Source: an uncultured Bacillota bacterium (GTDB lineage Bacteria; Sysuimicrobiota; Sysuimicrobiia; Sysuimicrobiales; Segetimicrobiaceae). Taken from it: a DNA stretch of 64,000 bases. This document shows, piece after piece, positions 4,150-32,500 of this stretch; position 1 is the stretch's first letter, and each line of letters begins with the position of its first letter. The notes beneath the pieces are model-generated. The model did no database searches. It saw nothing but the letters and a program-made list of their open reading frames with translations, and was not told where the DNA came from. The position numbers were made by a program, and so were the translations under genes. The stretch covers positions 716,693 to 780,692 of the forward strand of contig CAWDRG010000009.1 in NCBI GenBank assembly GCA_963804645.1, read 5' to 3'.

Positions 4150-5830
4150 GATCTAATTTAGTTCGCCATGAAAAACGTGGGCGCAAACCCTTGTAAAATC
4201 TGGGTTTCCATGCGCGGTGCGAGCGCAAAATGATAGGATTCCCGACCCGAAGATCGAACTGATGCAACGGCCAAGCAACACCGATTCGACGCTCCTGGGA
4301 GGGAATCCCAATGCCGCTTCTTCGCGCTCCGGTTCCCGGCTCCTGCTCCCGAGGCCGGCCATGTTGAGGCTGCGGGACCCGCAAGGCTCGCTGTGGGATC
4401 AACTCCTCCCCGTCCAAGCGCGGACGCTGAGTGCCGAGTTGACCGCCGTGGATACGTGCTTGGCCGATGAGCGGTTCTTCGAGCCCTACCTGCAGCGCTT
4501 CAACACGCTGATCGGCCGGCCGACCGTCCGGTCGAGACGTACCTGCGCTTGATGTATCTGAAGCATCGGTACCGCCTCGGCTATGAGTCCCTGGTCAAGG
4601 AAGTCACGGACAGCCTGCACTGGCGCCGATTCTGCCATCTGGCGTTGGACGCGCCGGTGCCCGCACGCGACCACGCTGAGCAAGCTGACCCGGAAGTACG
4701 GGCCCGACGTCGTGCACGACTTGAATCGGGCCCTGGTCCAGCGCGCTCGCGAGCACAAGCTCATGCGGTGCCGCAAACTGCGCATGGATACGACGGTGGT
4801 GCAAGCGCCCATCGACTATCCGACGGACATCGGGCTGCTGGCCGACAGTGCGCGGGTCGTGACGCGAACGGTGCGCCAGCTCCAGGCCGCGGGCGTGGCG
4901 GTGCGGACGGGCTTGCGCTCCCGGGCCCGCAGCATCAAGCGCGCGCTGGCCACCGTCGGCCGCAGTTTGCGCATGCGGACGGACGAGGCGAAGCAGGCCG
5001 TGCTCAAGCAGACGGCCCGCGTGCTCACGGGCACGAAACAAATCGGCCGGCAGGCGGAGCGGGTGCTGCGCAACAGTCGGCACGTCGGGCAGCACATCGA
5101 CGCGAAGACGGCCGCGATGGTGAAGCGGACGCGCGTCCGGCTGCGGCGCCAACTCGAGTTGACGGCGCCGGGTCGTCACGCCAAACGCGGACGCGTCTCA
5201 AGGGGACGACGACGATTCCGGATCGGATCGTCAGCGTGTTTGATCCCGAAGCCCGTCCCATCCGCCGCGGCAAGCTGAGCGCGAAGACGGAGTTCGGCTA
5301 CAAGGCGCTGCTCACCGAGACCGAAGATCGGCTGATCACGCACTACGAAGTCCATATGCGAAATCCGGAAGACGGCAGTCTGCTGCCTGCGGCGTATGCG
5401 GGACACACCGAGACGGTGCCGGGGACGCCACACGTCGTCGCCACCGATCGCGGGTTTGGCACCAAAGACAATGAGGCATTTCTTGAACAAGGCCGGCGTG
5501 AAGCAGCATCAGCCTTCCCATAAAGGAAGGACGAGCGCGGCGCGCGCCGCGCATGAACGCCAACGATGGTTCCGTCGACAACAACGATGGCGCAGTGGGC
5601 AGGAAGCGACGATCAGCCTGGGCAGCCGCAAGTATGGATGGCGATACAGTCGATTGCGCGGTCGCAGCTGGTGCCGATACGTGGATCGGGTTCGGAATTC
5701 TGGCCCACAATCTGGACCGAATCGTGGTGTTGGGGACAACGACGATGAGCTTCAGCGCAAACGATCACTTCCACACTGGCCGCGCGAGCGCGTGCAGGCA
5801 CGATCTCGTGTTCGCCACCATTTAAGCCTC
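4150..5830 (+). mobile_element. degenerate IS5/IS1182-family insertion sequence
   Basis: About 1.6 kb carrying an IS5/IS1182-type transposase split over at least three reading frames. Boundaries are approximate; terminal inverted repeats could not be defined by eye. Confidence 0.6.
4361..5830 (+). pseudogene. IS5/IS1182-family DDE transposase, frameshifted pseudogene
   Basis: Hallmarks are spread over frames 2/1/2/1: N-terminal SLWDQLLP...FFEPYLQRF...GRPTV then YLRLMYLKHRYRLGYESLVKEV; mid PHATTLSKLTRKYGPDVVHDLNRAL...MDTTVVQAPIDYPTDIGLL; C-terminal IVSVFDPEARPIRRGK...EFGYKALLTE...ITHYEV...ATDRGFG...ILAHNLDRI. Confidence 0.7.
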
Positions 5831-5939
5831 TCGGCAGAACCGTGTCGACCGGAGCACCCGAGCACGCGGGCGGATCACGTCAGCGGAATGGCTTCCGCAG
5901 TCACCGTTTGCTCGGATCCTAACATGCGGTGGAGCGGCA

Positions 5940-6729
5940 GCAGCTCGTTCACGCCGCGCAGGGTACGGATGTACTGGATACGCGGCGCAGTGGATCACGG
6001 CGCGTGAACTCGCTGAACTGGAACCGGACATCGACCCAAACGTGATCGGCGACGGGCCCGTCATGTTTTTCCGCAACGAAGGGTGGCTTGACCCGGTTCC
6101 GCACACGCACGCAATGCTCTCTGCGGCGATCCGTACGGGTGCTGCGCTCCATACTGGCTCGCGGGTGATCGAAACGCGCATTGAGTGCGGACGCGTGGTG
6201 CAGGTGAAGACCGCGTCTGGCGCGACCTTCAATACCGAGGTCGCAGTGCGCTACGCCGGACGGTGGGTCAGTGACGTGGCCCGTCTCGCCGGGGTGACGA
6301 TCCCACTGGCACCGACCGTCGGGTTGCTCGTCACGACGACTCCGGCTCCCACGTGCCTCCGCCGCATCGTGCTCGTGCCCGATTGCGATCTTCGGCCCGA
6401 CGGCGCCGGCCGGCTGAGGCTGCACATGGAAGACACAGACGCCGATGCTTCCGCCGGCTCAAGACCTCGTTCGCCGGGCCGCCCGGGTGCTGCAGGGGTT
6501 CGACGGAGTCAAGGCGGAAGCGGCCAGAAGCGGCATACGACCAATGCCGGTAGACCGTCACTCGGTGGTCGGGCCGATTCCGGGTGTCGACGGATACTAT
6601 GTGGTGGTGACGCACAGCGCAGTGACACTGGCCGCCTTCCTCGGCCAAGCGGTGGCCGAGGAGATCGCGCATGGCCGTGTCGACGTTCACCTGACGCCCT
6701 TCCGACCGGCGAGGTTCTTTGTGGCGTAG
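5940..6729 (+). pseudogene. FAD-dependent oxidoreductase (DAO family) C-terminal fragment, truncated and frameshifted
   Basis: ELAELEPDIDPNVIGDGPVMFFRNEGWLDPVPHTHAMLSAAIRTGAALHTGSRVIE...VQVKTASGATFNTEVAVRYAGRWVSDVARLAGVTIPLAPTVGLLVTT is typical of the DAO C-terminal half. The C-terminus continues in another frame (GIRPMPVDRHSVVGPIPGVDGYYVVVTHSAVTL...), the N-terminal FAD-binding half is absent, and the fragment abuts the IS. Confidence 0.6.
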
Positions 6730-6970
6730 GAGGGACAGCGATCCGCTCGGAGCCGTGATCGTCGTTCGCAGTTTCAGAAGCGCAGGGACGTCACACCGCA
6801 CGCGCGAAGGAACGCCTAGGCTGCCGTCCCCACCGGGACGTCCTTGCTCGTGGGGCTCGGTTGTGATTGGCGAGATGAGGAGCCCGTCGATATGACGTAC
6901 GAACCTGTCCGGCCAAAGAGTTTTGCGGACCGACGTTCGATCGTCCCGGACCCGGGAGCCCACCGATCCC

Positions 6971-8710
6971 ATGGAATCTAATGAGTCTCATCCATCGACG
7001 AGTCTGGCACCGACATTTCGAGTCCGCGCGCTGGAGATCCACAGTGACTACGCATGGAATTTCGAATGGGTGCAAAAGGCGCTCGCCTTCATGGAACGGC
7101 GGGCGCTCAACGCACTAATCCTCCATCGGAACGACATCGTGGACAATGTCGTGTATCCGGGGCGATATTTCGGGGCCGATCGTCGTCCCTACCGGAACAT
7201 CGTGGAGCGCTACCAGGACAGCTTCAGGACATTGTACCGGTACACGCCGACGCGGCGAAGCCGGCCGCTTCAACATCGGGACTATCTGGTGCGGGTCATC
7301 GAGCAGGCCCGGCGGCGTGGCATCGACGTGTATCTCCAAAATAAGGAGCTGTGGTTTCCGGACATCCTGCTGGAACTCCACCCCGAAGTGTGGATCGACG
7401 GGACCGTCTGCGCCACGCACCCGTTTTGGTGGGAGTTCGTCGAGACGAAATACACCGAGCTGCTGGAGGACTTTCCGGGACTCGCCGGCATCATCACCTC
7501 GCCGGGCACGGGGGAGAGCCGGGTGTCGATCGCCGCGAATCGCTGCGCGTGCGATCGTTGTCGAGCTACCGCACCGCGCGACTGGTATCGCCGGCTGCTG
7601 GACGCCATGCGCGGCCCGATCGTACGCGCCGGGAAGCGCCTCGTGGTTCGAGACTTCGTATTCGACGCCGCGGCGCAGGGCGAATTGGCCGCGGCCATGG
7701 AAACGTTCCCACCAGACGTGGTCGTCTCCCTGAAGAACACGCCCCACGACTACTATCCAACGTTTCCCCACAATCCCCGCATCGGACGCGTTGGGGACCA
7801 TGCGCAGTGGGTCGAGTTTGACGTGATGGGTCAATACTTCGGCTGGGGGCTGGGGATCAGCGTGATGACCGACGACCTGCGCGCGCGGATGCGCTACGGG
7901 CGCGCCCGTGGGGTCTCCGGTGTGATCTTTCGGACCGATTGGGAAGGGCTCGAAGCGCACACGGCGTTCCACACACCGAATCTCCTCAGCCTGTACGCGG
8001 GATCGGCCCTGGCGGTGAATCTCGACACGCCCGCCGCGACGATCGCCGGCGACTGGCTCGACGGAGAAGATCTCCTCCGCCCCGATTTGGACGCCGCCTC
8101 TCGTACCGCCACCGCCGCGCGGGTCGCCGATGCCTTCGGGCGTACCTGGGACATCGTCCGGCGCAGCCTCTATCTCAACGATTGCGTCTTTTCCGACTCC
8201 AGCCTGTACCCCGTCAGCCTCGAACACGCGTGGTGGCTGGCGGAAGAGAAGAACAGTTTGCGCAACTGGGATCCGTCGAAATCGGACGCGCTCTCGGTCG
8301 TCGACGAGGCGCACGTTCGTGCGCTGCTCGAGGAGAAGGACGAGGCCGTCCGGTTGGTCGCCTGGCTGGCCGATGCGGTGGGCGAGCTTCAGGACGTGCT
8401 GACCGACGCCGCGTGGCGCGACCTCCAGTGGCGCGTTGATGTCTTTCGACGTTACGTCTTGGGATTTCGCACGATCGCGCACGCCTGCGTCCTGACGAAG
8501 TACCTCGCCGACGAGGCGGGGCGCGCCCGAGTCCCATTTGCCGACACGGCGGATGCGTTGTGGCAGGCGCGGCTCGGCGACCTCCGGGCGCTCGCCGCCG
8601 AATTCGACGAGTTCGCGGCGGCGACGTCGCTGCCGTACACGGTCTATCTGGTTCTGAATCCCGAACGCCTGCGAGCGCTCGCGAACGACCTCGAGGCTCG
8701 GCGAAGGTAG
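6971..8710 (+). CDS. uncharacterised ~580-aa protein, paralog A (putative TIM-barrel glycosidase-like; conserved C...CxCxxC)
   Basis: Long ORF, about 70% identical to paralog C and about 35-40% to paralog B in this window. Shared motifs HRNDIVD, GRYFG, NKELWFPD, SPGTGESR-x9-CACDRC, RLVVRDFVFD, KNTPHDYYPTFP, GQYFGWG, RGVSGVIFRTDWE. Start is taken at MESNESHP by alignment with paralog C; the alternative ATG at 6923 cannot be excluded. Confidence 0.7.
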   Translation: MESNESHPSTSLAPTFRVRALEIHSDYAWNFEWVQKALAFMERRALNALILHRNDIVDNVVYPGRYFGADRRPYRNIVERYQDSFRTLYRYTPTRRSRPLQHRDYLVRVIEQARRRGIDVYLQNKELWFPDILLELHPEVWIDGTVCATHPFWWEFVETKYTELLEDFPGLAGIITSPGTGESRVSIAANRCACDRCRATAPRDWYRRLLDAMRGPIVRAGKRLVVRDFVFDAAAQGELAAAMETFPPDVVVSLKNTPHDYYPTFPHNPRIGRVGDHAQWVEFDVMGQYFGWGLGISVMTDDLRARMRYGRARGVSGVIFRTDWEGLEAHTAFHTPNLLSLYAGSALAVNLDTPAATIAGDWLDGEDLLRPDLDAASRTATAARVADAFGRTWDIVRRSLYLNDCVFSDSSLYPVSLEHAWWLAEEKNSLRNWDPSKSDALSVVDEAHVRALLEEKDEAVRLVAWLADAVGELQDVLTDAAWRDLQWRVDVFRRYVLGFRTIAHACVLTKYLADEAGRARVPFADTADALWQARLGDLRALAAEFDEFAAATSLPYTVYLVLNPERLRALANDLEARRR

Positions 8711-8756
8711 GGGTCCCGCCGTCGCGGCGTTCGCGGCGCGCGGCGGCCGACGTATC

Positions 8757-10379
8757 CTATGGGGCGCGGTACACCGCGAGGCCGTCCTCCAACACGGTGC
8801 GGGCACGGCCCAGACTCAGCAACATCCTGAACTGATGCGGGTACTGGTGACGCTCGAGCGTTGGGGCCAGGCCCGTGAGATACTCGTCGAGGGCCCGCAG
8901 GCTCGCTGCCAGCGCGGTGTCCACGCTCGCGCGCGTCAGCGCTCCTTGACGCAACCCCTCGACGTAGAGGCTCACCTCCGTCAGCGCACGGAACCCGGCG
9001 ATGTACTGGACATACCATCCGAAACACTCCCGCAGCCATGCGTGAAACTCGGCCGGAATCGCACCCGACGAATGCTCCACCTCGCGGCGGAGCGCCGTGA
9101 TCTCCGACATGGCCTCGTCCTTCTCCGCCAACGCCGCGTCGATCCCGGAGGCATCCATTCGAAGATCGTTCGCTCTGGCCGGGTCCCAATCGACCAGCGA
9201 GTGCTTCCGCTCCATCGTCCACCATGCCTTACGCACGCTCAGCGGAAACTGACTGCTGTCGTGAAACACAAAATCTCGAAGGTAGATTCCTTTGCGGATC
9301 ACCGCCCAGGTGCGGTCCCACACCCCGGCCACGAAGCTGGCGGTATCCGCGTCAGCGGGCCACCCAGCTTCCTCCAGCCACGTCCGCAGGATCGATGCCG
9401 CGGGGGCGTCGTCGCCGCCCGCCAGTCGTGCCGCGGCGATCAGGTTCGCGCGGTTGGGCGTCTCGAGACACCACCAGTCGTTGACGCGCTCCCATTCGGT
9501 GCGGAAGAGGGCGCCGCTCACGCCCCTGGACTGAGCGTGGCGGAGGCGCTGCGCGAGATCGTCGCGCATGAAGACCGGAAAGACCCCCCATCCGTAGAAC
9601 TGCCCGTACACATCGTATTCCACCCACTGCTCGCGGCGCAGGGCGCCGATCGCCGGGTTGTCGGGAAACGTCGGGTAGAAATCGTGCGGGGTCACCTTCA
9701 TGCAGAAGATGACGTCGGCGGGGGCACGATTGACCGCCTCCGTGAGGGGACGGTGATCGGCCGGTCGGTAGGCGAAGTCCCGCACCGCCAAGCGGAGCCC
9801 CGCGTGCGCCAACGGGGCGTACACGCTGGCGATGATCTGCTCATACCAATCCGCGAGGGTCGTGTGCTCGCAGAGCGGACATCGACACTTGTGCTGCGCT
9901 CTCGAGGCGCGCCCCTCCGGGGAGCCGGGGCTCATGATCACGCCCGCCAACTGCGGGAAGTCCTCGGCCAGCTCGGTGAACTTCGCCCCGAGAAACTCGA
10001 ACCACACCGGCTCCGACGGGCAGATGCGTCCGTCTTTCAGCAGATGCGGGAAGCGCTCGAGCACCTCGTCGGGGAACGTCAGCTCCTTCAGTTCGAGCCA
10101 CACCGGGATGTCCTGGCGCGCCGCCAGTTCGAGAATCGACGTCAAGTAGGCGCGATTGTTGTGGATCGCGTTCTCGCCGCGACGCACTGGGGTGCTGTCC
10201 CATTCCGTGTACGGGTCGAAGTAGCGCTTCGGGAAGATAAGGCGTGGCCCGAGATCGGTATCGTGGAGGACGAGCGCGTTGAGATCGTGGCGCTTGGCGA
10301 AGGTGAGCGCTTCCACGATCCGCGGCCGCTCCCACATCCTCGTCCCGCAGAGCTCAAGACCCCGAAACTTCAGCGGCAC
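8757..10379 (-). CDS. uncharacterised ~540-aa protein, paralog B (same family as 6971-8710 and 12118-13839)
   Basis: GTG start with AGGAGG 6 nt upstream. Conserved NALVLHDTDL, KRYF, LKELTFPDEV, SPGSPEGR-x9-CRCPLC, LRLAVRDFAY, KVTPHDFYPTFP, GQFYGWG, RGVSGALFRTEWE. Convergent with paralog A. Confidence 0.7.
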   Translation of the reverse strand: MPLKFRGLELCGTRMWERPRIVEALTFAKRHDLNALVLHDTDLGPRLIFPKRYFDPYTEWDSTPVRRGENAIHNNRAYLTSILELAARQDIPVWLELKELTFPDEVLERFPHLLKDGRICPSEPVWFEFLGAKFTELAEDFPQLAGVIMSPGSPEGRASRAQHKCRCPLCEHTTLADWYEQIIASVYAPLAHAGLRLAVRDFAYRPADHRPLTEAVNRAPADVIFCMKVTPHDFYPTFPDNPAIGALRREQWVEYDVYGQFYGWGVFPVFMRDDLAQRLRHAQSRGVSGALFRTEWERVNDWWCLETPNRANLIAAARLAGGDDAPAASILRTWLEEAGWPADADTASFVAGVWDRTWAVIRKGIYLRDFVFHDSSQFPLSVRKAWWTMERKHSLVDWDPARANDLRMDASGIDAALAEKDEAMSEITALRREVEHSSGAIPAEFHAWLRECFGWYVQYIAGFRALTEVSLYVEGLRQGALTRASVDTALAASLRALDEYLTGLAPTLERHQYPHQFRMLLSLGRARTVLEDGLAVYRAP

Positions 10380-10389
10380 ACCGCGCCTC

Positions 10390-11226
10390 CTATCTCAGCG
10401 TCCCGACGGTAAAGCCGTGCAGCATGTACCGGCGCAGCAGCAGGGCAAAGGTCAGGACCGGCAGGATGGTCAGGCACCCGGCGGCCGCGACGATGCCCCA
10501 ATTGAGCTGCTCTTCCATCTCCATGAACGAGAGGATGGAGACCGGCGCGGTCACCGCGTTGAAGTTCGTCAGGACCAGCGCCGCGAGAAACGAGTTCCAG
10601 ATGTCGATGAACGACAGGATCGCCACCGCGACCAACCCCGGAGTGGCGAGGGGCATGACGATCCGGAAGAACGCGCCGATGAGGCCGCATCCGTCCACTT
10701 CGGCGGCGTCGATCAGTTCGCCGGGCACGGTCCGAAAGAACCCCAGCATGATCCAGATTACGAACGGGAGCCGCACCGCGACCTCGAACGCGGTCAGGGT
10801 CGAGACCCGGTCGATCAGGCCGAGCGCCCGCACGGCGAAATAGACCGGAATGATCGTGGCAACCGGCGGAAACCCATTCGGTATCAGTACCGCCAGCAGC
10901 AGCCACCACCGTTTGCCCCGGAACGGCAGGCGGGCGAACGCGAAGGCGACCATCGCGCCCAGCACGACCGCGGCGGCCGTGCCCCACACGGAGACGTTGA
11001 TGCTGTTCAGATAGTAGCGGCCGAACCCCGACTGGATCAGCTGCACGTAGTTCGTGAGCGTCGGCGGGAACCAGAACCGCGGCGGCTGCAGGAGGAGCAC
11101 CCGGTCGGGTTTCAACGACGTGAGTAGCATGTAGTAGATCGGGAACAGCGTGACGAGGACCACGAGGACCACGAGCCCGATCACCCCGGCGCCACGGAAC
11201 GTCCACCGCCGCCCGCGCCGCGTCAC
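10390..11226 (-). CDS. carbohydrate ABC transporter permease (MalG-like)
   Basis: Six-TM permease with the EAA-like loop (IDAAEVDGCGLIGAFFRIVMPL). GTG start with GAGGG SD, 11 nt after the upstream permease stop. Confidence 0.8.
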   Translation of the reverse strand: MTRRGRRWTFRGAGVIGLVVLVVLVTLFPIYYMLLTSLKPDRVLLLQPPRFWFPPTLTNYVQLIQSGFGRYYLNSINVSVWGTAAAVVLGAMVAFAFARLPFRGKRWWLLLAVLIPNGFPPVATIIPVYFAVRALGLIDRVSTLTAFEVAVRLPFVIWIMLGFFRTVPGELIDAAEVDGCGLIGAFFRIVMPLATPGLVAVAILSFIDIWNSFLAALVLTNFNAVTAPVSILSFMEMEEQLNWGIVAAAGCLTILPVLTFALLLRRYMLHGFTVGTLR

Positions 11227-11236
11227 CGCCGGACCC

Positions 11237-12121
11237 TCATTCGGCCTCGACCAGCCGCAGGTATAGAACATACAGCAGCACGAGCACGCCGAGCGATACC
11301 ACGACCATCGCCGCGGCGCTCCCCATCTGGAAGAACTGGAACGCCGCTTTGAAGATGTGCACGCTGAGCATGTCCGTCGCGTTTCCGGGCCCGCCCCCGG
11401 TCATCACAAAGGGCTCGGCGAACAGGCGAAACGCCTCCATCGCGCGCAACAGCGCGGCGACCAGCAGCGTGTCGAAGATCACCGGCACCGTCACGCGGGT
11501 AAAGCACCCCCACCGCGAGGCCCCGTCGAGCTGCGCCGCCTCGTAGAGTGCGCCCGGCACGGTTTCGAGCGCGGACAGGCTCAGCAGAAACGTGAACGGC
11601 GTCCAGTGCCAGACGTCCATCAGCATCACCGAAACGAGCGCCAGCCGCGTGCTGGTCAGCCAGGCCACGCCCGGCAGCCCGAGTAGCCGCAGGCCGGCGT
11701 TGATTGGACCGAGGGTGTCGTTGAAGAGGATGTACCAGATGAGTCCGACCACTGCCGGCGTGATTACCATCGGGGAGATCACGACCGTCTTCAGCAGGTC
11801 GTTGGCGCGCGCGCCCCCGTGAACGAAGACGGCGAGCGCGAGCCCCAGGGTGACCTCGACCACCGTGACGACGACCATGAAGCCCAGCGTGCGGCCGATC
11901 GAGCCGACAAACGCGGGATCGGCCGCCAGTTGGAGGTAGTTCTGCACGCCGGCGAACACCGGCGACGACTGCTCTTGCAGGTTCCAGGTCGTCAGGCTGA
12001 GGTAAATCGTGTACAGCGCCGGCAGGATGCGCCCAACGACCAGGTACGCCATCCCGGGTACGAGGAAAAACCACAGCGCGAGATCTCGCCGCCGCCGGAC
12101 CGAGACCGCCGGCGCAATCAC
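11237..12121 (-). CDS. carbohydrate ABC transporter permease (MalF-like)
   Basis: TM-rich with the ABC permease signature (YEAAQLDGASRWGCFTRVTVPVI). GTG start overlaps the stop of the upstream paralog C gene (GTGA), indicating translational coupling. Confidence 0.8.
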   Translation of the reverse strand: MIAPAVSVRRRRDLALWFFLVPGMAYLVVGRILPALYTIYLSLTTWNLQEQSSPVFAGVQNYLQLAADPAFVGSIGRTLGFMVVVTVVEVTLGLALAVFVHGGARANDLLKTVVISPMVITPAVVGLIWYILFNDTLGPINAGLRLLGLPGVAWLTSTRLALVSVMLMDVWHWTPFTFLLSLSALETVPGALYEAAQLDGASRWGCFTRVTVPVIFDTLLVAALLRAMEAFRLFAEPFVMTGGGPGNATDMLSVHIFKAAFQFFQMGSAAAMVVVSLGVLVLLYVLYLRLVEAE

Positions 12122-13839
12122 CGAAGGCGCGCCCGCAGGTCGTCCGCCAGCGCCCGGAGGCGCTCCGGGCTGAGCAGGATGTAGACTACGTGGGACAAGG
12201 ACGTGGATTGCGCCAACGCGTCGAACTCGGCCGCGAGCGCCTCGAGGTCGCTGAGCCGCGCATCGAGGGTCTTCCGCGCCTCGTGGACCCACTGTACGCG
12301 GTCGCCGGCGCCGTCCTCAGTGACCGCCTTGGTCAGGACGCAGGCGTGTCCGGCGGCGCGAAACGCGGCCGTATACCGGCGGAACACGTCGAAGCGGGTC
12401 ACGAGATCCCCGTGCGCGCTGTCGCTCAAGACGTCACCGAGGTCCGCGACCTCCGCGCAGAGCCTCTCAACCAGGCGCAGCGCGTCATCCTTCTCCTCGA
12501 GCAGGCGGCGGACGTTGTCGGGGTCGTCGACCCGGAGCGCGCCCGCCCGGGATGGATCCCAGTCCTTCAGGCTGTTCTTTTCTTCCGCCAGCCACCACGC
12601 GTGGTCCAGGCTGACCGGCAGGTTGCTGGAGTCCGAGAAGACGCAGTCGTTCATGTACAGGCTCCGCCGCACAATCTCCCAGGTTTGATCGAGCACGCGC
12701 GCGACGCGGTCCGCCGCGGCCAGCCGGACCGCGGGCGCCAGGCCCGGGCGCAGGAGGTTCTCCTGGTCGAGCCATTGCCCGACAACCGCGGCCCCGGGCG
12801 TTTCCAGATCCTGGGCGAGCGCGGCACCGGCATAGAGGCTGACCACGTTCGGGCTATGAAACGTCGTGTGCGCTTCGAGCCCTTCCCAGTCGGTGCGGAA
12901 CACCACGCCGCTGGCTCCGCAGGCGCGCGCATGGCGGAAGCGCACGCGGAGATCCTCCGTCATCACGGCGATCCCGATGCCCCAACCGAAATACTGACCC
13001 AACACGTCGAACTCGATCCACTGTTCGTGGGCGCCCACCCGTCCGATCCGGGGATTGTTGGGGAACGTCGGGTAGTAGTCGTGGGGTGTGTTCTTGAGTT
13101 CGATGACCACGTCTGCCGGCAGCGCCTCCATGGCGGCTACGATCTCGGCCTGTGCCGCCGCGTCGAAGACGAAGTCCCGCACTACGAGGCGCTTGCCCAC
13201 CCGCGCGATCGGCTCGTACATCGCTTCGAGCAGCTGCCGATACCATTCCCGGGGCGTGGTGGAGCGGCACCGTGCGCAGGTGCACCGGTTCGCCGAGATC
13301 GAAACGCGGCTCTCCCCGGTTGCGGGCGAGGTAATGATCCCTGCCAGCCCGGGCAGGTCTTCAAACAACTCCGTGTACTTCGTCCGGACGAACTCCCACC
13401 AAAACGGGGCAGTCGCGCACACCGTGCCGTTCTTCCAGAGGTCCGAGTGCAGTTCGAGCAGGATCTCCGGGAACCATAACTCTTTATTCTGGAGATACAC
13501 GTCGATGCCGTAGCGGTGGGCTTCGTGGACGACCCGCCGCAGATAGTCGCGCCGCTGCAACGGTCCACTGCGCCGCGTCGGCGTATACCGGTACAACGTG
13601 CGGTACATGTCTTGATACCGCTCGAAGATGTTGCGATACGTCCGCCGGTCCGCGCCGAAATATCGCCCCGGGAACACCACCTGATCGATGATGTCGTTCC
13701 GCTGCAGGGCTAGCGCGTTGAGGCCGTGCGCCTGCGCGAATCGGAGTGCTCGCTGCACCCAGGGAAAATCCCATACGTACTCGCTGTTGATTTCGAGCAG
13801 CCGGGTACGAAACACGGGCTCCGTTTCGCTGGTTTCCAT
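12118..13839 (-). CDS. uncharacterised ~575-aa protein, paralog C (same family)
   Basis: METSETEP start. LQRNDIIDQ, GRYFGADRR, NKELWFPE, SPATGESR-x9-CTCARC, RLVVRDFVFD, KNTPHDYYPTFPNNP, GQYFGWG, RACGASGVVFRTDWE. First gene after the solute-binding protein in the operon. Confidence 0.75.
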   Translation of the reverse strand: METSETEPVFRTRLLEINSEYVWDFPWVQRALRFAQAHGLNALALQRNDIIDQVVFPGRYFGADRRTYRNIFERYQDMYRTLYRYTPTRRSGPLQRRDYLRRVVHEAHRYGIDVYLQNKELWFPEILLELHSDLWKNGTVCATAPFWWEFVRTKYTELFEDLPGLAGIITSPATGESRVSISANRCTCARCRSTTPREWYRQLLEAMYEPIARVGKRLVVRDFVFDAAAQAEIVAAMEALPADVVIELKNTPHDYYPTFPNNPRIGRVGAHEQWIEFDVLGQYFGWGIGIAVMTEDLRVRFRHARACGASGVVFRTDWEGLEAHTTFHSPNVVSLYAGAALAQDLETPGAAVVGQWLDQENLLRPGLAPAVRLAAADRVARVLDQTWEIVRRSLYMNDCVFSDSSNLPVSLDHAWWLAEEKNSLKDWDPSRAGALRVDDPDNVRRLLEEKDDALRLVERLCAEVADLGDVLSDSAHGDLVTRFDVFRRYTAAFRAAGHACVLTKAVTEDGAGDRVQWVHEARKTLDARLSDLEALAAEFDALAQSTSLSHVVYILLSPERLRALADDLRARLR

Positions 13840-13867
13840 GTGCGTTCGACGCGCCAACCGCGCGTCC

Positions 13868-15271
13868 TTAGGAGAGCTTGATCGTATCCAGAGTGGTTTG
13901 AATCTGCCGCTGCGCGGTGCTCAAGGCGCTCTGGATGTTACCGCCGGTTAGCACCGACGAAATCGCCGTGCTGACCTGGTCGGCGATTTCCTGCGCGCGG
14001 AGGATGCTCGGATACGGCAGGACGCCCACGTCGGTTTGGGCGCCTGGATCGGCTTCCGCCCGGAGCACGTATCCGGCCGCAGGGTACTGCGCGATGGTCG
14101 CCTCGATCGCACGCGCGCGGCTCGGCATGTACCCGGGATGCTTCTTGGCCATGTCCACCTGTGCCTCCGTGGTCGAGGCCGCGATCAGCAGCTGCAGGGC
14201 GGCGGCTTTGTGCTCGGACCGCGACGACACGGCAATCACGCCCGGGCCGTCCCGGAAGGCATGCTTCCATCCCCGAGGGTGGTTCGGCTCCGCAGGGGGC
14301 AGCGCGTAGCCGATTTTCCCGTATACGGGCACGTCCGGCTTGATCGTGTTGAGCACCACGCGGTCAAAGTACTGCACGATCATCGCGGCGTGACCGCTCG
14401 CGAACAGGGCCGTGGATTCCGCGCTGCTGTCGTTGAGGTTGCTCGACGGCTGGATGGCCAGCAGGGCCTTGTACATCTGGGCGGCCGCGAGGCCGTTCGG
14501 CCCGTCAAACTCAGCCTTGCGGGTGCGCGGATTGTACAGATTGATCCCGTACGCGAGGATCATGTTCTCGTAACTGTGCCACAGATATACGCCCTTCTTG
14601 TTCGGGAACGCGCTCCCGTAGAAATCGGCATCGAGCGGCTTCCCCGCGAGCAGCTCGCCCCGCTTGCGGGTGAAGAACTGACCGATTTCCAGGAACTGCT
14701 GGTAGCTATTGGGCGGGGCGAGATCGTACCCGAAGCGTGCTTTGAACGCGGCTCGTTCGCGGGGATCCTCAAACAGATCCAGCCGATACGCCACCGCCGG
14801 CGTGCTCGTGGTCGTCGGGATTCCCAGGGTCCTATTCTGGAATCTGACCGCTCGCTGCGCCGCCTGCGTGAATTCGGGCCACGCAAGCGTGCTTTGGCTC
14901 CCGGTGCTCGCGATCAGGCCGTCCAGCACGTCGATCATCCCGCGATTGTAGAACTCGTACATGTTCTGAACGCCGAGGGTATAGATCAGATCCCAGGTGT
15001 TCGCGCCGCTGACAAAGTCGAGGACCACCTTTTGCGTCAGTTCGTCGCCGTTGAGGAATCGGGCCTGCAGGATCATCCCCAAGGTCTTCGCAATCTCGCT
15101 CATCTTATCGGCGAGCGCGACCTCGTGGACCTCAGGCGACGTGATGAAGTTGATCGTGACGCCTTGGAACTGTCCTTTCGGCTGTGCCGTAACCGGCCCA
15201 GGGGTCACCCCTGCGACCACGGCGGCCCCGCTCGCGCCGACTGCAAGCTTCAAGAGCGTCCGTCGGTCCAT
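13868..15271 (-). CDS. ABC transporter substrate-binding protein (family 1, sugar-type) with Tat-like signal
   Basis: MDRRTLLKLAVGASGAAVVAG twin-arginine-type signal peptide, followed by a family-1 extracellular solute-binding domain. Confidence 0.8.
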   Translation of the reverse strand: MDRRTLLKLAVGASGAAVVAGVTPGPVTAQPKGQFQGVTINFITSPEVHEVALADKMSEIAKTLGMILQARFLNGDELTQKVVLDFVSGANTWDLIYTLGVQNMYEFYNRGMIDVLDGLIASTGSQSTLAWPEFTQAAQRAVRFQNRTLGIPTTTSTPAVAYRLDLFEDPRERAAFKARFGYDLAPPNSYQQFLEIGQFFTRKRGELLAGKPLDADFYGSAFPNKKGVYLWHSYENMILAYGINLYNPRTRKAEFDGPNGLAAAQMYKALLAIQPSSNLNDSSAESTALFASGHAAMIVQYFDRVVLNTIKPDVPVYGKIGYALPPAEPNHPRGWKHAFRDGPGVIAVSSRSEHKAAALQLLIAASTTEAQVDMAKKHPGYMPSRARAIEATIAQYPAAGYVLRAEADPGAQTDVGVLPYPSILRAQEIADQVSTAISSVLTGGNIQSALSTAQRQIQTTLDTIKLS

Positions 15272-15599
15272 TGTCCGCGTCGCCACTGCCTTCACCCCAT
15301 TCATCGGCAGGTCTGCACGCCACTTAAAAACATGCTACCGGGTGCCGTTGGAACCTCATATCGGATCGCGACCTGATTTGCCCGTACGATGCCCGCCCCA
15401 TGCCATGCTCGGCCGGGATCGTGTCCAATCGTGTCCATTAGAAGCGCCCACCGCAGGCCACAACGATTCCAGAGACCGAGGCAATCGTCGAGCGTGCCCG
15501 GCGGATCTTGCGGTGGCTACTCTGATGCTGATATTCTGAATTAGGAAGCTGCAAGATCAGCCCGGGGGGCCCGCCGCCATTTACCTGGATCTGCAGGTT

Positions 15600-16175
15600 C
15601 CTGCGTCGCACGTCAAGGCGTACTGCCGTACACGTCGGCTGGAGCTCGGTGACAATCGAGGACCTCGATTCGGTCACAGCTCACGTGGCGCAGGGACCGG
15701 TCCCGACGAGCTCGGTGAGGGGCTTCGCCCCGGCGCCGTCGACGAGCTCGTTGGGCATCATCGCGGAGGCCCCGGCCGGCGGCGGCATCAGCGACAGCAG
15801 CGGGGCGAACGGTGTCTTGAGCTTCAGCACCACCGTGTCGCTGCCGGAGGCCGTGACCGACTCGACCGACTGCTACACGAACGTGCCGTACGAGTTGACC
15901 CGGCCCCACCGATTCAGCGAGGCGATCACATCGTCCGGCCCCATCGTCTTGCCGTTGTGGAACGGGACGTTCCGCCGGAGCGTGAACGCGTACGTCAACC
16001 CGCCCTTGCTGACCTCGTAGCCGGAGACGAGCGAGGGCTGCACGCGCCAATTGGCATCGAACGCGAACAGTTCCTCGAATACGCCGAGCGTCATGTTCGC
16101 CGTGAGCGAGGCCGGCTGGACGATCACGTCGAGCGTGAGCGGTTCGCCGACCGCGTCGATGCCTCTCAGACTCAC
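15600..16175 (-). pseudogene. ABC substrate-binding protein family 5 (Dpp/Opp-type) remnant
   Basis: N-terminal family-5 SBP motifs (FEELFAFDANWRVQPSLVSGYEVSKGGLTYAFTLRRNVPFHNGKTMGPDDV) terminate prematurely. A downstream piece with LVGTGP lies in another frame and about 60 aa too close, indicating deletion plus frameshift. Confidence 0.5.
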
Positions 16176-16211
16176 TCGGCGTCTGCCCGCCTCCGTTCGC
16201 GGTCGGCGCCA

Positions 16212-16946
16212 CTACAGATGCAGGGAGCGTTCCATGTTGAACTTGTAGCGGTCTCCCCGATACACCGCCTGGCGGTACTCGACTCTGTCGCCGTCGGGAC
16301 CATAGATGAGCGACGTTACGTTGAAGACGGCCGTCGGCGCGACCAGGTCCAGCATGTCGGCCTCCTCCGCGGTCGCCATGCGGGCCTCAAACGTCTGCTC
16401 CGCTTTGAGCTCGCGCACGCCGGCCCGCAGCGCGTAGTGCTCCGACGGCGCCGCCACGTCGCAGAACGCGACCAAGACCTCGTGCATCTTCGGCGCGGAG
16501 AAATAACTCTTGTAGAGGACGAGCGGTTCGCGGTCGCCAAGCCCGAGCCACACGAGCCGAATGAGCATGGCATTTGGCGGCACCGAGAGCAGGCGGCCGA
16601 GCACGAAATCGGCGGGCTCCTGCGTGCGCGCGATTACCCGCAGCGCGGGCGCCATGTCCTGGGCCGCCACCGTCTCGCGGAAGACGGTCGCATGCGCGAG
16701 CGGCTGATTGATCGGTCCGTGCCCGGTGACGAAGGTGCCGCGTCCCTGGACCTTCTTCAACATCCCGACCCGGGCGAGTCCGTCGAGAGCTTGGCGGACC
16801 GTGGAGCGGCTCACGCCGAACTGCTCGGACAACTCCCGTTCCGAGGGCAGTTGAGCGCCCGTCTCCCAATCCCCCCGCTGGATCCGGGTATTGATCGACC
16901 CGACGAGCTGCCGGTAGAGCGGCTGCTGGTCTTTGCTGTCGATCAC
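16212..16946 (-). CDS. GntR/HutC-family transcriptional regulator (wHTH + UTRA domain)
   Basis: PLYRQLVGSINTRIQRGDWETGAQLPSERELSEQFGVSRSTVRQALDGL is a GntR HTH. The C-terminal UTRA-like effector domain puts it in the HutC subfamily. Confidence 0.85.
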   Translation of the reverse strand: MIDSKDQQPLYRQLVGSINTRIQRGDWETGAQLPSERELSEQFGVSRSTVRQALDGLARVGMLKKVQGRGTFVTGHGPINQPLAHATVFRETVAAQDMAPALRVIARTQEPADFVLGRLLSVPPNAMLIRLVWLGLGDREPLVLYKSYFSAPKMHEVLVAFCDVAAPSEHYALRAGVRELKAEQTFEARMATAEEADMLDLVAPTAVFNVTSLIYGPDGDRVEYRQAVYRGDRYKFNMERSLHL

Positions 16947-16989
16947 GATGGCAGGGGCACCTCGGGCAATGGGTTAAAAGTGGGTCATC

Positions 16990-17011
16990 TGGTACGTACC
17001 AATGGATACCA
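16990..17011. promoter_or_regulatory. candidate GntR/HutC operator (perfect 12-bp palindrome plus adjacent half-palindrome)
   Basis: TGGTACGTACCA (16990-17001) is immediately followed by TGGATACCA, about 45 bp upstream of the regulator start codon in a locally AT-richer intergenic region. HutC-type operators typically have GT...AC cores. Confidence 0.4.
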
Positions 17012-17128
17012 CGTATACAACAGACTTTTCTCGATTCCTTTTCTGCGCTCTGACAGCTGGTTTAAGCCGCGCTCGAACCTGTGTTCGATATGTGTCCGCA
17101 TGTTTCTCCGTCAAGTCACGATCCGCAC

Positions 17129-17518
17129 TTAGGACGGACTCTCCAGATGCTCCGGATCCTCGACGGGGACAAAATCGTTTCCGGCTGGCGCGAAAATTTC
17201 GACCAGACATAGAGTGTCTGATCCCGCAGCGCTGAGCGCATGGCGTGTGTGCGGAGGAATGAAGACGACATCGTCTTTGTCGACGAAGCGCTCCTCCCCC
17301 TCCACCGTGAGCCGGCCCCGACCTGATAGAATCCAGTAAATGTTCTCAGAGTGATCGTGCGAATGGTATGGTCCTGGAGGTCCGGAGGGTGCAAGGCGTA
17401 CGATGCGCACATCAACGTGCCGCGCCCCGATGGCGTCTGTCGCCAAGAGGATCGCCGTCCCGCGGTTGTTCCTCAGCGGCACCGTCCCGCACTGCGAAAC
17501 GTTCATCACCCGGTACAT
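17129..17518 (-). CDS. cupin-domain protein
   Basis: GPYHSHDHSENIYWILSGRGRLTVEGEE...DVVFIPPHTRHAL contains both conserved cupin motifs. Confidence 0.7.
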   Translation of the reverse strand: MYRVMNVSQCGTVPLRNNRGTAILLATDAIGARHVDVRIVRLAPSGPPGPYHSHDHSENIYWILSGRGRLTVEGEERFVDKDDVVFIPPHTRHALSAAGSDTLCLVEIFAPAGNDFVPVEDPEHLESPS

Positions 17519-17605: not shown

Positions 17606-18295
17606 TCAACCGGCGCTGATGAACTCGCATCCCTGCTCGCGCAGCCCGCGTTCGATGTTGGCAATATTGGTGACGTCGCCGCGTCGCAACACATCTTGGA
17701 CGCCGGCATAGTGTCCCAGCAACTTCTGCGTCTCCTCGGCGATCTGTGCCGCGTCGGCAGCCCGCACGGCCACGATGCCGTCGAGGTCGGCCACGATGAT
17801 ATCCCCGGGATGGACGACCACGTGTCCGCACGCGATCGGTACGTTCACCTCACCCGGACCGTCGATTGGTCCCATCATCGCCGACACGCCCCGGGCGAAG
17901 ACTGGGAGTCCGTCCTCCTGAATTTCCGTGACGTCGCGCACGGCGCCGTCCATGACAACCCCGGCCAGCCCCCGGTGCAGTAATCCCCGGCAGACGTTCC
18001 CGCCGATGAGCGCTCCGCGAAGGCTTCCGCGGGCGTTGATGACAAGCACGTCGCCGCGGCGGGTCTGCTGCATTGCGGCTTTGATCACATTGAAGGCTCC
18101 GGTTGGCACCGAGACCGTGACGGCGGACCCAATCACCCGCCCCATCGGGCGGTAGGCCGCTTGAATTCCGTTGTCCATGGTGCCAGCCCGATTCATCGCG
18201 TCCGAAATATCCGGCGTGCGCAGTCCGGCAAACTTCGCCAAGAGCGTCGGCTCGGCGCGCAGCGCGGTCGCGTACACACGAAATCCTACTGGCAT
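17606..18295 (-). CDS. RraA-family protein (4-hydroxy-4-methyl-2-oxoglutarate aldolase / oxaloacetate decarboxylase-like)
   Basis: RraA/MenG-like fold signature. Start is at MPVGFRV (codon 54 of the 17606-18454 ORF). Confidence 0.7.
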   Translation of the reverse strand: MPVGFRVYATALRAEPTLLAKFAGLRTPDISDAMNRAGTMDNGIQAAYRPMGRVIGSAVTVSVPTGAFNVIKAAMQQTRRGDVLVINARGSLRGALIGGNVCRGLLHRGLAGVVMDGAVRDVTEIQEDGLPVFARGVSAMMGPIDGPGEVNVPIACGHVVVHPGDIIVADLDGIVAVRAADAAQIAEETQKLLGHYAGVQDVLRRGDVTNIANIERGLREQGCEFISAG

Positions 18296-18450
18296 CTCAG
18301 CCTCCTCTACCTCGCAGTTTGGCTCCGTCCGATCCATGCTCGCTCGCGGTGTTGCGCGTCGGTGACGCTGAGGGAGCCTACGGGGGCCTGCAGCGCCGGG
18401 GCAGATTCCGGCGGCGTGGCGGAGTTGTACGACGAACACTCCGTTCCATG

Positions 18451-19332
18451 TCATCCACTCCGCTTCAAGCGCGGGTCTAGCGCGTCCCGAAGTCCGTCAC
18501 CCATCAAGTTGAAGCTGACGGCCACCACGAGAATGGCGAGCCCCGGAAACGTGATCAGTAACGGTGCGCTCGTAATGAAATTCCTCGCCGTCGACAGCAT
18601 CGCGCCCCACTCCGGCGTGGGAGGCTGTGGACCGAGGCCGAGAAAGCTCAAACTCGAGGCCGTGAGCATTGCCGTGGCAAGCAACAGGGTGGTCTGGACG
18701 ATTAAGGGAGGGACGATGTTCGGGGCCACGTGACGCAGCATAATGCGCCCGGGTCCCGCACCCATGGCCGTGGCGGCGAGCGTATACTCCTCTGCTTTGA
18801 CGACCAAGGTAGAGCCGCGGGCAACCCGGGCGAACGCCGGAATCGAATACATGCCGACGGCGATCATGACGTTGGTCGTGCCGACGCCCAGCGCTGCGAT
18901 GATGCCGATGGCCAGCAGAAAGCCCGGGAGCGCCATGAGGATATCGAGCACGCGGGACAGCACCGCATCCACCGCGCGCCCGAAGTACCCGGCTGCAAGC
19001 CCCGCGAGTGCGCCGATCGGCAGGGCTAACGCCACGGCTCCAATGGTGATGAACAACGTCTCGCGAGACCCCACGATGATCCGCGAAAGAAGATCACGTC
19101 CCAATTCGTCGGTCCCGAGCCAATGGCTGCGCGAGGGCCACTGGAGCTGATGTCCGAGACTGATCGACGTCGTCGAGTAGGGAGCGAGCGAGGTGGCAAA
19201 GCATGCGGTCAGCAGAACCACTCCGATCACGATCATCCCGGCTGCGGCCGGGCGATGGCGCAGAAATTGCCGCGCTGCGATCCTCGCATACGAGGTGGGC
19301 GGCGCGGGCGGCGTGCCGTAGGTGCCGATCAT
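18451..19332 (-). CDS. ABC transporter permease, DppC/OppC-like
   Basis: TM-rich with the binding-protein-dependent transport signature. N-terminal start is uncertain. Confidence 0.75.
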   Translation of the reverse strand: MIGTYGTPPAPPTSYARIAARQFLRHRPAAAGMIVIGVVLLTACFATSLAPYSTTSISLGHQLQWPSRSHWLGTDELGRDLLSRIIVGSRETLFITIGAVALALPIGALAGLAAGYFGRAVDAVLSRVLDILMALPGFLLAIGIIAALGVGTTNVMIAVGMYSIPAFARVARGSTLVVKAEEYTLAATAMGAGPGRIMLRHVAPNIVPPLIVQTTLLLATAMLTASSLSFLGLGPQPPTPEWGAMLSTARNFITSAPLLITFPGLAILVVAVSFNLMGDGLRDALDPRLKRSG

Positions 19333-19443
19333 GGGCCGCGGCGGCTGCGGCCCAACCGCGCGCCGAACCTGACCCGACGCGGGAGTGTTCCCGCGCCCGG
19401 CGGGACGGCCCGCGGGGGGCAGCTCGTTCCGTCCCGCATCGGA

Positions 19444-20364
19444 CTAGTCGTAGCGGACACGGGGATCGAGGTACGCGTACAAGACGTCGACGGCGGCGTT
19501 CATCACCACAAAGGCTGCGCCGAGGATCATCAACCCGCCCTGCACCACCGGAAAATCACGCGACCGGATCGCGTCCACGAGCATGCGTCCCAATCCCGGG
19601 CGAGAAAACACGGTCTCGGTCACGACCGCGCCGCCGAGGAGGTATCCAAACTGCAGACTGATCACGGTCACGACCGGGACGAGCGCGTTGCGAAGTGCAT
19701 GCCGGAAAATCACGGCGCGTACCGAAAGGCCTTTGGCGCGCGCCGTGCGTGTGAAGTCCTGCCGGATGACTTCAAGCAGACTCGAGCGCGTCATCCGCGC
19801 AATGATCGCGACGGAGGCTGCGCCGAGCGCCAACGCCGGAAGCACCAGCGCGCGGATGCCAGCCGCACCGCCTGTTGGGAACCAGCGGAGCTCCACGGAG
19901 AACAAGAAGATCATCATCAACCCGACCCAAAAGATCGGCAGCGATACCCCGAGCAGCGCGCCTACCATCGCCACATGATCCACGAACGAATACTGATACG
20001 TCGCAGACACCACCCCGATGATCACCCCGAGCACGGTCGCCAACACCATCGCGGCCGTGGCCAACTCGGTTGTCGGCCAGATCCGGCTGCGAATCTCCGT
20101 AATCACCGGGCGGCGCGTGATGATGGACCGGCCGAGATCGCCCCGAACGACGCGGCTCGCCCACAGTTCGTACTGCACATACAGCGGCTTGTTCAGGCCG
20201 AGATTGACCCGAATTTGTTGGATGTCCGCGGGGGCCGCGTCTTCTCCGGCGAGGACAAACGCCGGATCACCGGGCGCGAGATGCAGCAGCCCGAACACGA
20301 TCAACGAGATCGCCACCATGACCGGAACGACATACAGGAGCCGACGGAGAACGACCCGGTGCAT
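19444..20364 (-). CDS. ABC transporter permease, DppB/OppB-like
   Basis: 306 aa, six TM helices, conserved permease loop (ARAKGLSVRAVIFRHALRNAL). Confidence 0.8.
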   Translation of the reverse strand: MHRVVLRRLLYVVPVMVAISLIVFGLLHLAPGDPAFVLAGEDAAPADIQQIRVNLGLNKPLYVQYELWASRVVRGDLGRSIITRRPVITEIRSRIWPTTELATAAMVLATVLGVIIGVVSATYQYSFVDHVAMVGALLGVSLPIFWVGLMMIFLFSVELRWFPTGGAAGIRALVLPALALGAASVAIIARMTRSSLLEVIRQDFTRTARAKGLSVRAVIFRHALRNALVPVVTVISLQFGYLLGGAVVTETVFSRPGLGRMLVDAIRSRDFPVVQGGLMILGAAFVVMNAAVDVLYAYLDPRVRYD

Positions 20365-20449
20365 CAGCGGGCGCGCGAGACGCCGCCATAGCGTTGCCGG
20401 ACGAGGCCGTATGCCCTCGGCCGGCGGTGGACGGCCATCGCGGAAACGC

Positions 20450-28225: not shown

Positions 28226-28252
28226 CTCTTCCCTCCCGGTTGGTCCGGCGGA

Positions 28253-29068
28253 TCAGCTCGCGTAGTCGGCGATGTGCTTTTTCATGCGGGCGGCGAGGCG
28301 CTCGACGTTGCGCTCGAGCCGCGCCGCGCCCTCTTCACGCGTCGCCAAGCGCGGGTCTTCCTCGGCGGGGAGCATGAAGTCGGGGGTCGGGTGCCCGTCG
28401 AACGCGGCGCCGTTGACGATGCCGAAGTCGCGGTAGCGCAGCGGCGTGCCCTTGGGCGGCAGCGCGCTCAGATCGACGCTGCCCGGCGCCTCCACCATCA
28501 TGAACGCGGTCTCGCCGCGTCCGGCGTGCCCCGGATCCTGGCCGGCCGGGGCGGGGGAGCCGCCCGCCGATTCGTACAGGACGGTGACCCGCGGCGTCTC
28601 GTTCTCCTCCAAGGCGACGCGGCGCAGCGCCCGCTGGTGGTTCGGGGCGCCGTGCCCGTTGATGATGACGATCAGCCGCCAGCTGTCCTGCTTCAGCAGC
28701 CGGACGATCTCGCGCACGACGACGGCGAACGTCCCTTCCTCGATGTAGAGGCTCTTGACGGGGAAGCCCGGGAAGTCCATGCCGACGACCCGCTCGTGCC
28801 CTTCGAAGCCGAGCGGGCGCAGGCCCTGGGGGCCGTCCGGGACGCGCACGGTCTCGGAGCCGAGGTGGTAGGCGGGGAGGACGACCCCGCCGACACGCTT
28901 GGCGACTTCGACGGCGACCCGATGGGCGGCCATCGCGTCCGTGCCCATGGGCATCGCGGGGCCGTGCCACTCGAGCGGCCCGAACGGCACGTACACGACC
29001 GGACAGCGCCGGCGCGCCTCCGCGATCTGCGGGGGGCGCATCAGCTCAAACTCGACCAACTCTGCCAT
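28253..29068 (-). CDS. creatininase-family amidohydrolase
   Basis: Creatinine amidohydrolase family metal-binding motifs (PFGPLEWHGP...GTD, INGHGAPNH). Confidence 0.8.
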   Translation of the reverse strand: MAELVEFELMRPPQIAEARRRCPVVYVPFGPLEWHGPAMPMGTDAMAAHRVAVEVAKRVGGVVLPAYHLGSETVRVPDGPQGLRPLGFEGHERVVGMDFPGFPVKSLYIEEGTFAVVVREIVRLLKQDSWRLIVIINGHGAPNHQRALRRVALEENETPRVTVLYESAGGSPAPAGQDPGHAGRGETAFMMVEAPGSVDLSALPPKGTPLRYRDFGIVNGAAFDGHPTPDFMLPAEEDPRLATREEGAARLERNVERLAARMKKHIADYAS

Positions 29069-29152
29069 GGGATCCTCCTCTGGAAACGCGGCTGCGCGGC
29101 CGCGCGGCGCGTCCGGACGGCTCCGCGCGGCTCACTGCTCCGTACCGGGCGG

Positions 29153-30622: not shown

Positions 30623-30632
30623 GCGTTCCCTC

Positions 30633-32428: not shown

Positions 32429-32500
32429 GTGGGAGTCACCCGCTCTCGGAGACGCGCGCCCCGGCGCCCGTATCGGGCGCCGGGGCGGCGTCTGCGCGCG

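Follow-up and report, generated by a model that had tools for sequence, protein, structure and literature searches.

Which substrate would be served by a transport operon that inserts an enzyme gene between the gene of its binding protein and those of its permeases, and that carries no ATPase gene of its own? This question is raised by a locus in a 64,000-nucleotide stretch of contig CAWDRG010000009.1 (assembly GCA_963804645.1) from an uncultured Bacillota bacterium, a GC-rich stretch (0.60-0.74) to which we refer, over its whole length, as the window. An earlier note on this DNA had described a minus-strand series consisting of a solute-binding protein (SBP), paralog C, a MalF-like permease, a MalG-like permease and paralog B. 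This order was confirmed by the coordinates (Table 1), whereas a third paralog (A), encoded convergently to B on the plus strand, had been left out. We consider it reasonably probable that the six genes represent a catabolic module, in which a CUT1 importer and GH67-like (glycoside hydrolase family 67) cytoplasmic enzymes act on a uronic-acid-bearing oligosaccharide, with a shared ATPase encoded elsewhere.

The six genes are real and maintained under purifying selection, because dN/dS values against a 90%-identical relative (L001, a 40.8-kb metagenome contig) ranged from 0.05 to 0.20 (0.09 for the SBP and 0.15 for paralog A) and the locus was recovered as identical copies in two other assemblies, i.e., in three independent assemblies in all. 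Codon-position GC marked the minus-strand run from 8.7 to 15.3 kb as coding, including all operon open reading frames. The SBP exceeded the gathering scores of both Pfam SBP_bac_1 (2.5e-19) and SBP_bac_8 (4.3e-16), and the twin-arginine translocation (Tat) signal proposed for it was visible in its N-terminus (MDRRTLLKLAVGASGAAVVAGV...VTAQP) as a DRRTLLK motif followed by a hydrophobic stretch, with no lipobox Cys, as read from the sequence itself. The best NCBIfam similarities of the two permeases were GlcT/UgpA/MalF and GlcU/MalG, none of which reached the equivalog cut-offs (4e-26 to the MalG equivalog, below cut-off, for the MalG-like protein, for which the gene calls of L001, L085 and L086 gave the same 278 aa). 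No signal peptide was present in paralogs A, B or C. Paralogs A and C shared 68% identity, and B shared 38% identity with C/A and missed an insert of approximately 16 aa that A and C have in common; judged by these similarities, paralog A is a recent duplicate of C. The stop codons of A and B are separated by 46 nt.

Table 1. Window coordinates, strand and supporting evidence for the genes of the locus and for the elements upstream of it.
Feature	Coordinates	Strand	Evidence
Paralog A, duplicate of C	6971..8710	+	579-aa gene call in L085/L086
Paralog B, type-2 GH67-like enzyme, 540 aa	8757..10379	-	Family comparison, tree
MalG-like permease, 278 aa	10390..11226	-	Pfam BPD_transp_1 1.3e-10
MalF/UgpA-like permease, 294 aa	11237..12121	-	Pfam BPD_transp_1 8e-15
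Paralog C, type-1 GH67-like cytoplasmic enzyme, 579 aa	12118..13857	-	Foldseek, AF2
Family-1 extracellular SBP, 478 aa from first ATG, first gene of the operon	13868..15304	-	Pfam
Patch conserved with L001, candidate promoter/operator	15332..15420	-	blastn and alignment
Truncated family-5 SBP pseudogene with in-frame stop	~15680..16208	-	Pfam SBP_bac_5 4.5e-21, profile positions 2-120 of 368
GntR/HutC-type regulator (helix-turn-helix and UTRA)	16212..16946	-	Pfam GntR 1.8e-20, UTRA 1.9e-20

For the enzymes, both the structural and the profile comparisons lead to GH67. None of the three paralogs matched a Pfam model (E<=0.01) or an NCBIfam model, and none of the Pfam GH67 N, M and C domains scored above its gathering score in them. 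An AlphaFold2 (AF2) model of paralog C, built on a 36-sequence alignment (pLDDT 90.5, pTM 0.91), showed a protein that begins at a (beta/alpha)8 barrel and continues into a long helical C-terminal domain, an architecture that matches GH67 structures. In a Foldseek search against PDB, ranks 1-11 were all occupied by chains of GH67 alpha-glucuronidases (E ~5e-13, TM 0.54-0.58), followed by a GH138 alpha-galacturonidase (8.6e-11), with GH20, GH84 and GH115 far behind. The GH138 enzyme (BP0997/BT0997 type, PDB 6hze) differed in being a protein of approximately 860 aa that targets pectin rhamnogalacturonan II, whereas the window enzymes have 540-579 aa and showed only 10-11% identity to it and no sequence-level match. 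A further candidate assignment, suggested by one UniRef name, was membership of DUF4838. Although the family shares the broad GH20-like TIM-barrel fold class with the DUF4838 glycosidases (GH163 and GH185), of which GH185 is cytoplasmic and acts on an anionic sugar (PMC10570127), this candidate was rejected, as PF16126 was matched by 0 of 36 family members at E values up to 10.

At the sequence level, a profile of the family matched AguA of Geobacillus stearothermophilus (E 6.3e-5) in two collinear segments, which aligned D260 with D364, E282 with E386 and the invariant Q288 with E392. In AguA numbering, we take the catalytic residues of GH67 to be Glu285 as the acid and Asp364/Glu392 as the base. 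E182 is proposed as the equivalent of E285 from spacing only (78 versus 79 residues). E126, E182, R227, D260, E282, Q288, W324 and E325 were invariant in all 131 family sequences, and four Cys (C147, C192, C194 and C197, that is, CxCxxC and one distal Cys) were found in 128 of the 131. These Cys probably form a single metal site that is structural rather than catalytic, because all four were lost together in the other three, otherwise intact members. The Cys-less members belong to L029, L033 and L048, in each of which the family gene lies beside TctC; C147 is replaced by D, C192 and C194 are deleted, C197 is changed to A or S, and the invariant acidic residues are kept, so that nature offers a metal-site-free variant.

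Sub-threshold matches to GH67M and GH67C were seen in 11 and 4, respectively, of 36 members. A full hidden Markov model (HMM) search over 1.84 billion representatives returned 881 relatives at E<=1e-3, including 154 at E<=1e-30; the family itself was spread over at least six phyla and was 50-58% identical across them. Two distant relatives, P0352 and P0361, passed the gathering score of Pfam Glyco_hydro_67M. Fusions were also found among the distant relatives: P0339 to a glucuronoyl/acetyl-xylan-esterase-like domain, P0361 to a DHDPS-family domain, and P0405 to a GH127-like and a PcRGLX-like domain. As far as domain content can tell, such partners speak for substrates of the uronic-acid or pectin type.

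Is the arrangement of the locus an accident of this genome? We collected 450 homologues and then 77 genomic loci, whose neighbourhoods were classified with phmmer seeds; the counts given here are over 80 non-redundant loci, and the 131 family sequences were used for a neighbour-joining tree. First, L001 was 90% identical in DNA over exactly window positions 15312-6877, which cover SBP, C, MalF, MalG, B and A; outside this interval the two sequences were unrelated, save for a patch of approximately 89 nt upstream of SBP. Second, the order SBP-enzyme-permease-permease-enzyme recurred in L001 and six loci of Alphaproteobacteria, most of them from Acetobacteraceae (L021, L028, L030, L031, L034 and L037). 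In the tree, C (together with A) grouped with the enzymes located between SBP and permeases, and B grouped with those encoded downstream of the second permease (in L021, L028, L030 and L037). Because seven other loci repeat the order and the tree sorts the enzymes by their place in it, the order is an inherited or transferred module and not the product of chance. The Acetobacteraceae-type loci L014, L021, L028, L034 and L037 each contain four distinct enzyme subtypes; in the window, paralog A, the duplicate of C, occupies the place of the extra subtypes.

Beyond this group, 39 of the 80 loci were linked to CUT1 genes, 25 to TctABC or TctC, and 16 to neither within reach. At least two family genes were present in 28 loci and at least three in 14, and a short-chain dehydrogenase/reductase (SDR) gene was adjacent in 18; the adjacent SDR resembled the KduD, gluconate-5-dehydrogenase and glucose-1-dehydrogenase subfamilies. 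Of the orders seen in the 39 CUT1-linked loci, the commonest had the enzyme after the permeases. SBP-permease-permease-enzyme(-SDR) was the order in Clostridia and Spirochaetes, LacI<-enzyme-SBP-permease-permease that in Paenibacillus, and LysR<-enzyme-TctB-TctA-TctC that in Bosea, Microvirga, Devosia and Chelatococcus, and an enzyme between SBP and permeases was limited to one sub-lineage. A -4 overlap between enzyme and first permease was observed in six of the seven loci analysed (the window, L001, L021, L028, L030 and L037), and -4 overlaps also occurred at permease/permease and enzyme/enzyme junctions of related loci. Since they are present at many junctions, the 4-nt overlaps reflect ordinary operon packing and not a special link. 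Thus, the proposal that the insertion implies co-translation stoichiometry with the importer was not supported, given that the position of the enzyme varies across lineages and the overlaps are general: co-expression of enzyme and importer is supported, and a special stoichiometric link is not.

The nature of the substrate was approached from the enzymes and their partners. First, each of the closest families consists of uronic-acid-cleaving enzymes. Second, the alternative partner is TctABC, and those solved relatives of the linked TctC that are named by substrate bind terephthalate, a carboxylate. Third, the adjacent SDRs resemble KduD and gluconate-5-dehydrogenase. Finally, the distant relatives are fused to uronate-related domains. 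All of these suggest a uronic-acid-bearing substrate. In the mechanism that we propose, the SBP would capture an anionic, uronic-acid-bearing oligosaccharide or glycoside, the permeases would import it, with energy supplied by a multitask ATPase of the MalK/MsiK/MsmX type encoded elsewhere, and the enzymes would hydrolyse different linkages of the imported substrate in the cytoplasm. A single transcript of all five minus-strand genes would start at a promoter within the conserved patch upstream of SBP, with translational coupling at the C/MalF junction.

A different chemistry was also considered, in which the paralogs are not glycoside hydrolases and the TIM barrel and four-Cys site serve an isomerase, lyase or redox-linked step on a small carboxylate, with the paralogs forming a hetero-oligomer. 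TctABC systems are known for small carboxylates and not for glycosides; GH67-like enzymes do not usually carry a nearly invariant four-Cys site, which might hold Fe-S or Zn; the E392 equivalent is Gln; up to four enzyme subtypes co-occur in a locus; and genes for SDR, 2-hydroxyacid dehydrogenase and RraA-like aldolase are frequent neighbours. However, all solved structural neighbours listed above the significance cut-offs were glycoside hydrolases or glycosidase-like proteins, invariant acidic residues occupy the positions of the GH67 catalytic carboxylates, half of the loci use CUT1 importers of the carbohydrate type, distant relatives are fused to carbohydrate-esterase-like and GH127-like domains, and the joint loss of the four Cys suggests a structural site. 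We therefore judge this chemistry unlikely, although it deserves some weight, and retain hydrolysis of an imported uronic-acid-bearing substrate.

The closest described system is the aguEFG CUT1 transporter of G. stearothermophilus with its intracellular GH67 alpha-glucuronidase AguA; the aldouronate utilization system of Paenibacillus sp. JDR-2 is of the same kind (PMC4194401). Compared with aguEFG/AguA, the window has three paralogs instead of one enzyme, an enzyme gene inserted between the SBP and permease genes, and no xylanase, xylosidase or uronate-pathway genes alongside the operon; its enzymes carry the four-Cys site and have Gln at the position equivalent to E392. They also have no GH67 N-terminal domain, fail the Pfam GH67 thresholds and are only about 12% identical to GH67, and these last features, along with several others, weigh against a uronic-acid-specific hydrolytic module. 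No family member has been characterized, the base candidate E392 of AguA is represented by an invariant Gln and the general acid was placed by spacing only. The SBP had no informative characterized relative, with only a weak match to CbpB (8e-5) among solved structures, and no uronate-catabolism genes were found beside the operon in the window. Decayed genes and an insertion sequence flank the locus, which may have been acquired recently without a matching ATPase. Another sugar could just as well be the target, or the reaction may be something other than hydrolysis.

A narrower and bolder version of the hydrolytic reading, which we put forward only tentatively, is that the paralogs constitute an unclassified GH67-related glycoside hydrolase family (defined by the missing N-terminal domain and the four-Cys metal site) of cytoplasmic uronidases acting on imported acidic glycosides, that their pairing with TctABC implies glycoside import by this transporter, and that the insertion of the enzyme gene may reflect an enzyme-importer metabolon.

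With respect to the operon itself, the junctions agreed well with what had been described. The GTG start of MalF (12121-12119) overlaps the TGA stop of paralog C (12120-12118) as GTGA, which can be read directly in the sequence, and a 10-nt gap separates the TAG of MalG from the GTG of paralog B at 10379, with an AGGAGG that overlaps the TAG. The gap between the MalF TGA and the MalG GTG at 11226 is likewise short and has a Shine-Dalgarno-like GAGGG upstream of the GTG, although its length is 10 nt and not the 11 nt reported before. Between SBP and C the gap is 10 nt if C starts at TTG 13857. This start was favored over ATG 13839 (573 aa), used by some gene callers, because L001 has an ATG at the position homologous to the TTG. 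Start calls for MalF also differed (294 aa with the 4-nt overlap in L001, and 271 aa in L085 and L086), and the overlapping GTG was kept since the 271-aa start falls inside the first hydrophobic segment (LALWFFLVPGMAYLV). With successive gaps of 10, -4, 10 and 10 nt from SBP to B, the five genes probably form one tightly packed, co-transcribed and translationally coupled unit, as the earlier note had proposed. Scans for sigma-70 promoters and intrinsic terminators gave nothing beyond chance and no intergenic site within the operon, an Rfam scan of 6500-17400 at E<=0.1 gave no match and hence no riboswitch or known leader RNA, and the hairpin in the 46-nt B/A spacer did not exceed shuffled sequence in stability (z +1.29) and lacked a U-tract. 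Binding-protein-dependent sugar importers that lack an ATPase gene and are accompanied by cytoplasmic glycosidases are well known, and the operon design is in this sense ordinary.

The regulator had to be reassigned. The GntR/HutC-type gene had been described as divergent from the operon, but Pfam, third-codon-position GC and independent gene calls in L085 all placed it on the same strand. Its stop codon is 907 bp from the SBP start, and approximately 530 bp of this gap consist of a family-5 SBP fragment (called as 100 aa in L085), a pseudogene which shows that the junction between the GntR gene and the operon is rearranged. On its other side, the GntR gene is preceded by co-directional SBP5, DppB-like, DppC-like, RraA-like and cupin genes. 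Because it follows this run, it looks like part of the Dpp-like unit, and it is most likely a leftover neighbor tied to the adjacent Dpp-like/RraA/cupin cluster rather than a dedicated regulator. The RraA-like gene of the window (17606-18454) was considered as an orthologue of the enzyme-linked RraA-like genes of other loci and rejected (35% identity over 94 residues). Homologues of the GntR/UTRA protein (>=100 bits) were found in 0 of the 80 related loci, which instead carry divergent LysR (16) or LacI (14) genes, and no GntR gene was present in the 1.2 kb upstream of SBP in L001, where the contig ends.

These data bear on an account in which the GntR/HutC protein is dedicated to the operon and the enzyme gene lies between SBP and permeases for stoichiometric co-production or physical association. 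No other regulator gene lies closer than the GntR gene, transcription could conceivably run on from it into the operon because the gap yielded no convincing terminator, and the enzyme/permease overlap is kept across phyla in an order that recurs in seven loci. Nevertheless, the orientation of the gene, its distance and the intervening pseudogene, its absence from the related loci and from the upstream sequence of L001, the end of L001 synteny just upstream of the SBP start (15312, with only the 89-nt patch shared beyond), the variable position of the enzyme (after the permeases, before SBP or beside TctABC) and the generality of the -4 overlaps all make this account improbable. A candidate site of control is the conserved patch just upstream of SBP.

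This patch of approximately 89 nt contains an imperfect palindrome, ATCGGATCGCGACCTGAT, at 15360-15377 and a -10-like hexamer, TAGCAT, which make it a candidate promoter/operator, as inferred from sequence conservation. The palindrome occurs once in the window, and no second copy was found, for example before paralog A. At the distal edge of the patch (15418-15437) there is a perfect tandem direct repeat of ATCGTGTCCA in two copies (TGGACACGAT in two copies on the operon strand), a possible regulator site that is not conserved in L001. Comparison of L001 887-1209 with window 15312-15332 revealed that an insertion of approximately 300 nt in L001 separates the SBP start codon from the patch. Should this patch be the promoter, the window and L001 would have leaders of very different length.

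How would the importer be energized? In a six-frame motif search of the entire 64 kb, no open reading frame that could plausibly encode an ATPase showed a Walker A or LSGGQ site, which bears out the claim that the locus has no ATPase gene. Moreover, a MalK-like gene lay within 10 kb in only 1 of the 39 CUT1-linked loci, L022 from Chelatococcus, directly upstream of SBP. In this respect, the locus resembles the CUT1 importers served by MsmX or MsiK, with an SBP and two permeases and no gene for a nucleotide-binding domain (NBD), as do 38 of the 39 CUT1-linked loci, L022 being the relative that departs from this pattern. Multitask NBDs serving several CUT1 importers have been documented, such as MsmX in Bacillus and MsiK in Streptomyces (PMC7658222). 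Two further sets of ABC importer genes in the window, a Dpp/Opp-like set (SBP5, DppB-like and DppC-like; 18451-22000) and a second CUT1 set (SBP and permeases; ~30636-33961), were likewise devoid of ATPase genes, and this suggests that the source genome routinely encodes its NBDs elsewhere. Missing ATPase genes are unusual for Dpp-type systems. Sharing of an ATPase is the standard inference, whereas the label MsiK-like given to it earlier assumes an actinomycete. The closest relatives named to phylum or family of the window pyruvate kinase (45863-47290) were from Armatimonadota, GAL15 and Ktedonobacteraceae (52-58% identity). The source is therefore not an actinomycete, and the MsiK label is an analogy only; its lineage was counted to neither Bacillota nor Actinomycetota, in contrast to the hosts of MsmX and MsiK.

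Outside the operon, the neighborhood showed signs of rearrangement. Beside paralog A, positions 4549-6758 contain a transposase region of the DUF772 type and the truncated remnant of an FAD oxidoreductase gene (DAO fragment, 6042-6758), and the GC content of the first ~26 kb (0.62-0.68) was lower than that further on (0.67-0.74); together these features hint at an acquired or rearranged island as the setting of the cluster. Taken to the extreme, the cluster could be a recently acquired island that is non-operational in its host, a transporter without an ATPase among decaying genes. Its synteny with L001 ends at the cluster borders, its flanks carry the SBP5 fragment, the DAO fragment and the DUF772 transposase, its GC content is 0.64-0.67 compared with 0.67-0.74 between 28 and 56 kb of the window, and the closest architecture is alphaproteobacterial. 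Such decay is nonetheless hard to reconcile with six intact open reading frames under strong purifying selection, with identical copies in three independent assemblies, and with two other ABC importers in the window that also lack ATPase genes, and we regard it as very unlikely. A catabolic module remains our preferred reading. Further along the minus strand (26948-34925), the second CUT1 set is found together with genes for an M81/MlrC-like peptidase, a creatininase-family amidohydrolase, a DegT/DnrJ-type aminotransferase and a polysaccharide deacetylase, an unusual combination, suggestive of an imported amino-sugar or peptide conjugate.

For annotation, the corrected assignment of the regulator prevents a wrong regulon from being attached to this operon. 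For the family, the enzymes appear to be of greater interest than the operon design: with no Pfam or NCBIfam model, with invariant acidic residues and with a near-constant place in transport operons, they make a well-defined candidate for a new family related to GH67. That the transport partner alternates between CUT1 and TctABC provides a testable clue to a carboxylated-glycoside substrate and, if the tentative uronidase assignment is true, the strict pairing of these enzymes with one or the other transporter would mean that tripartite tricarboxylate transporters can import glycosides.

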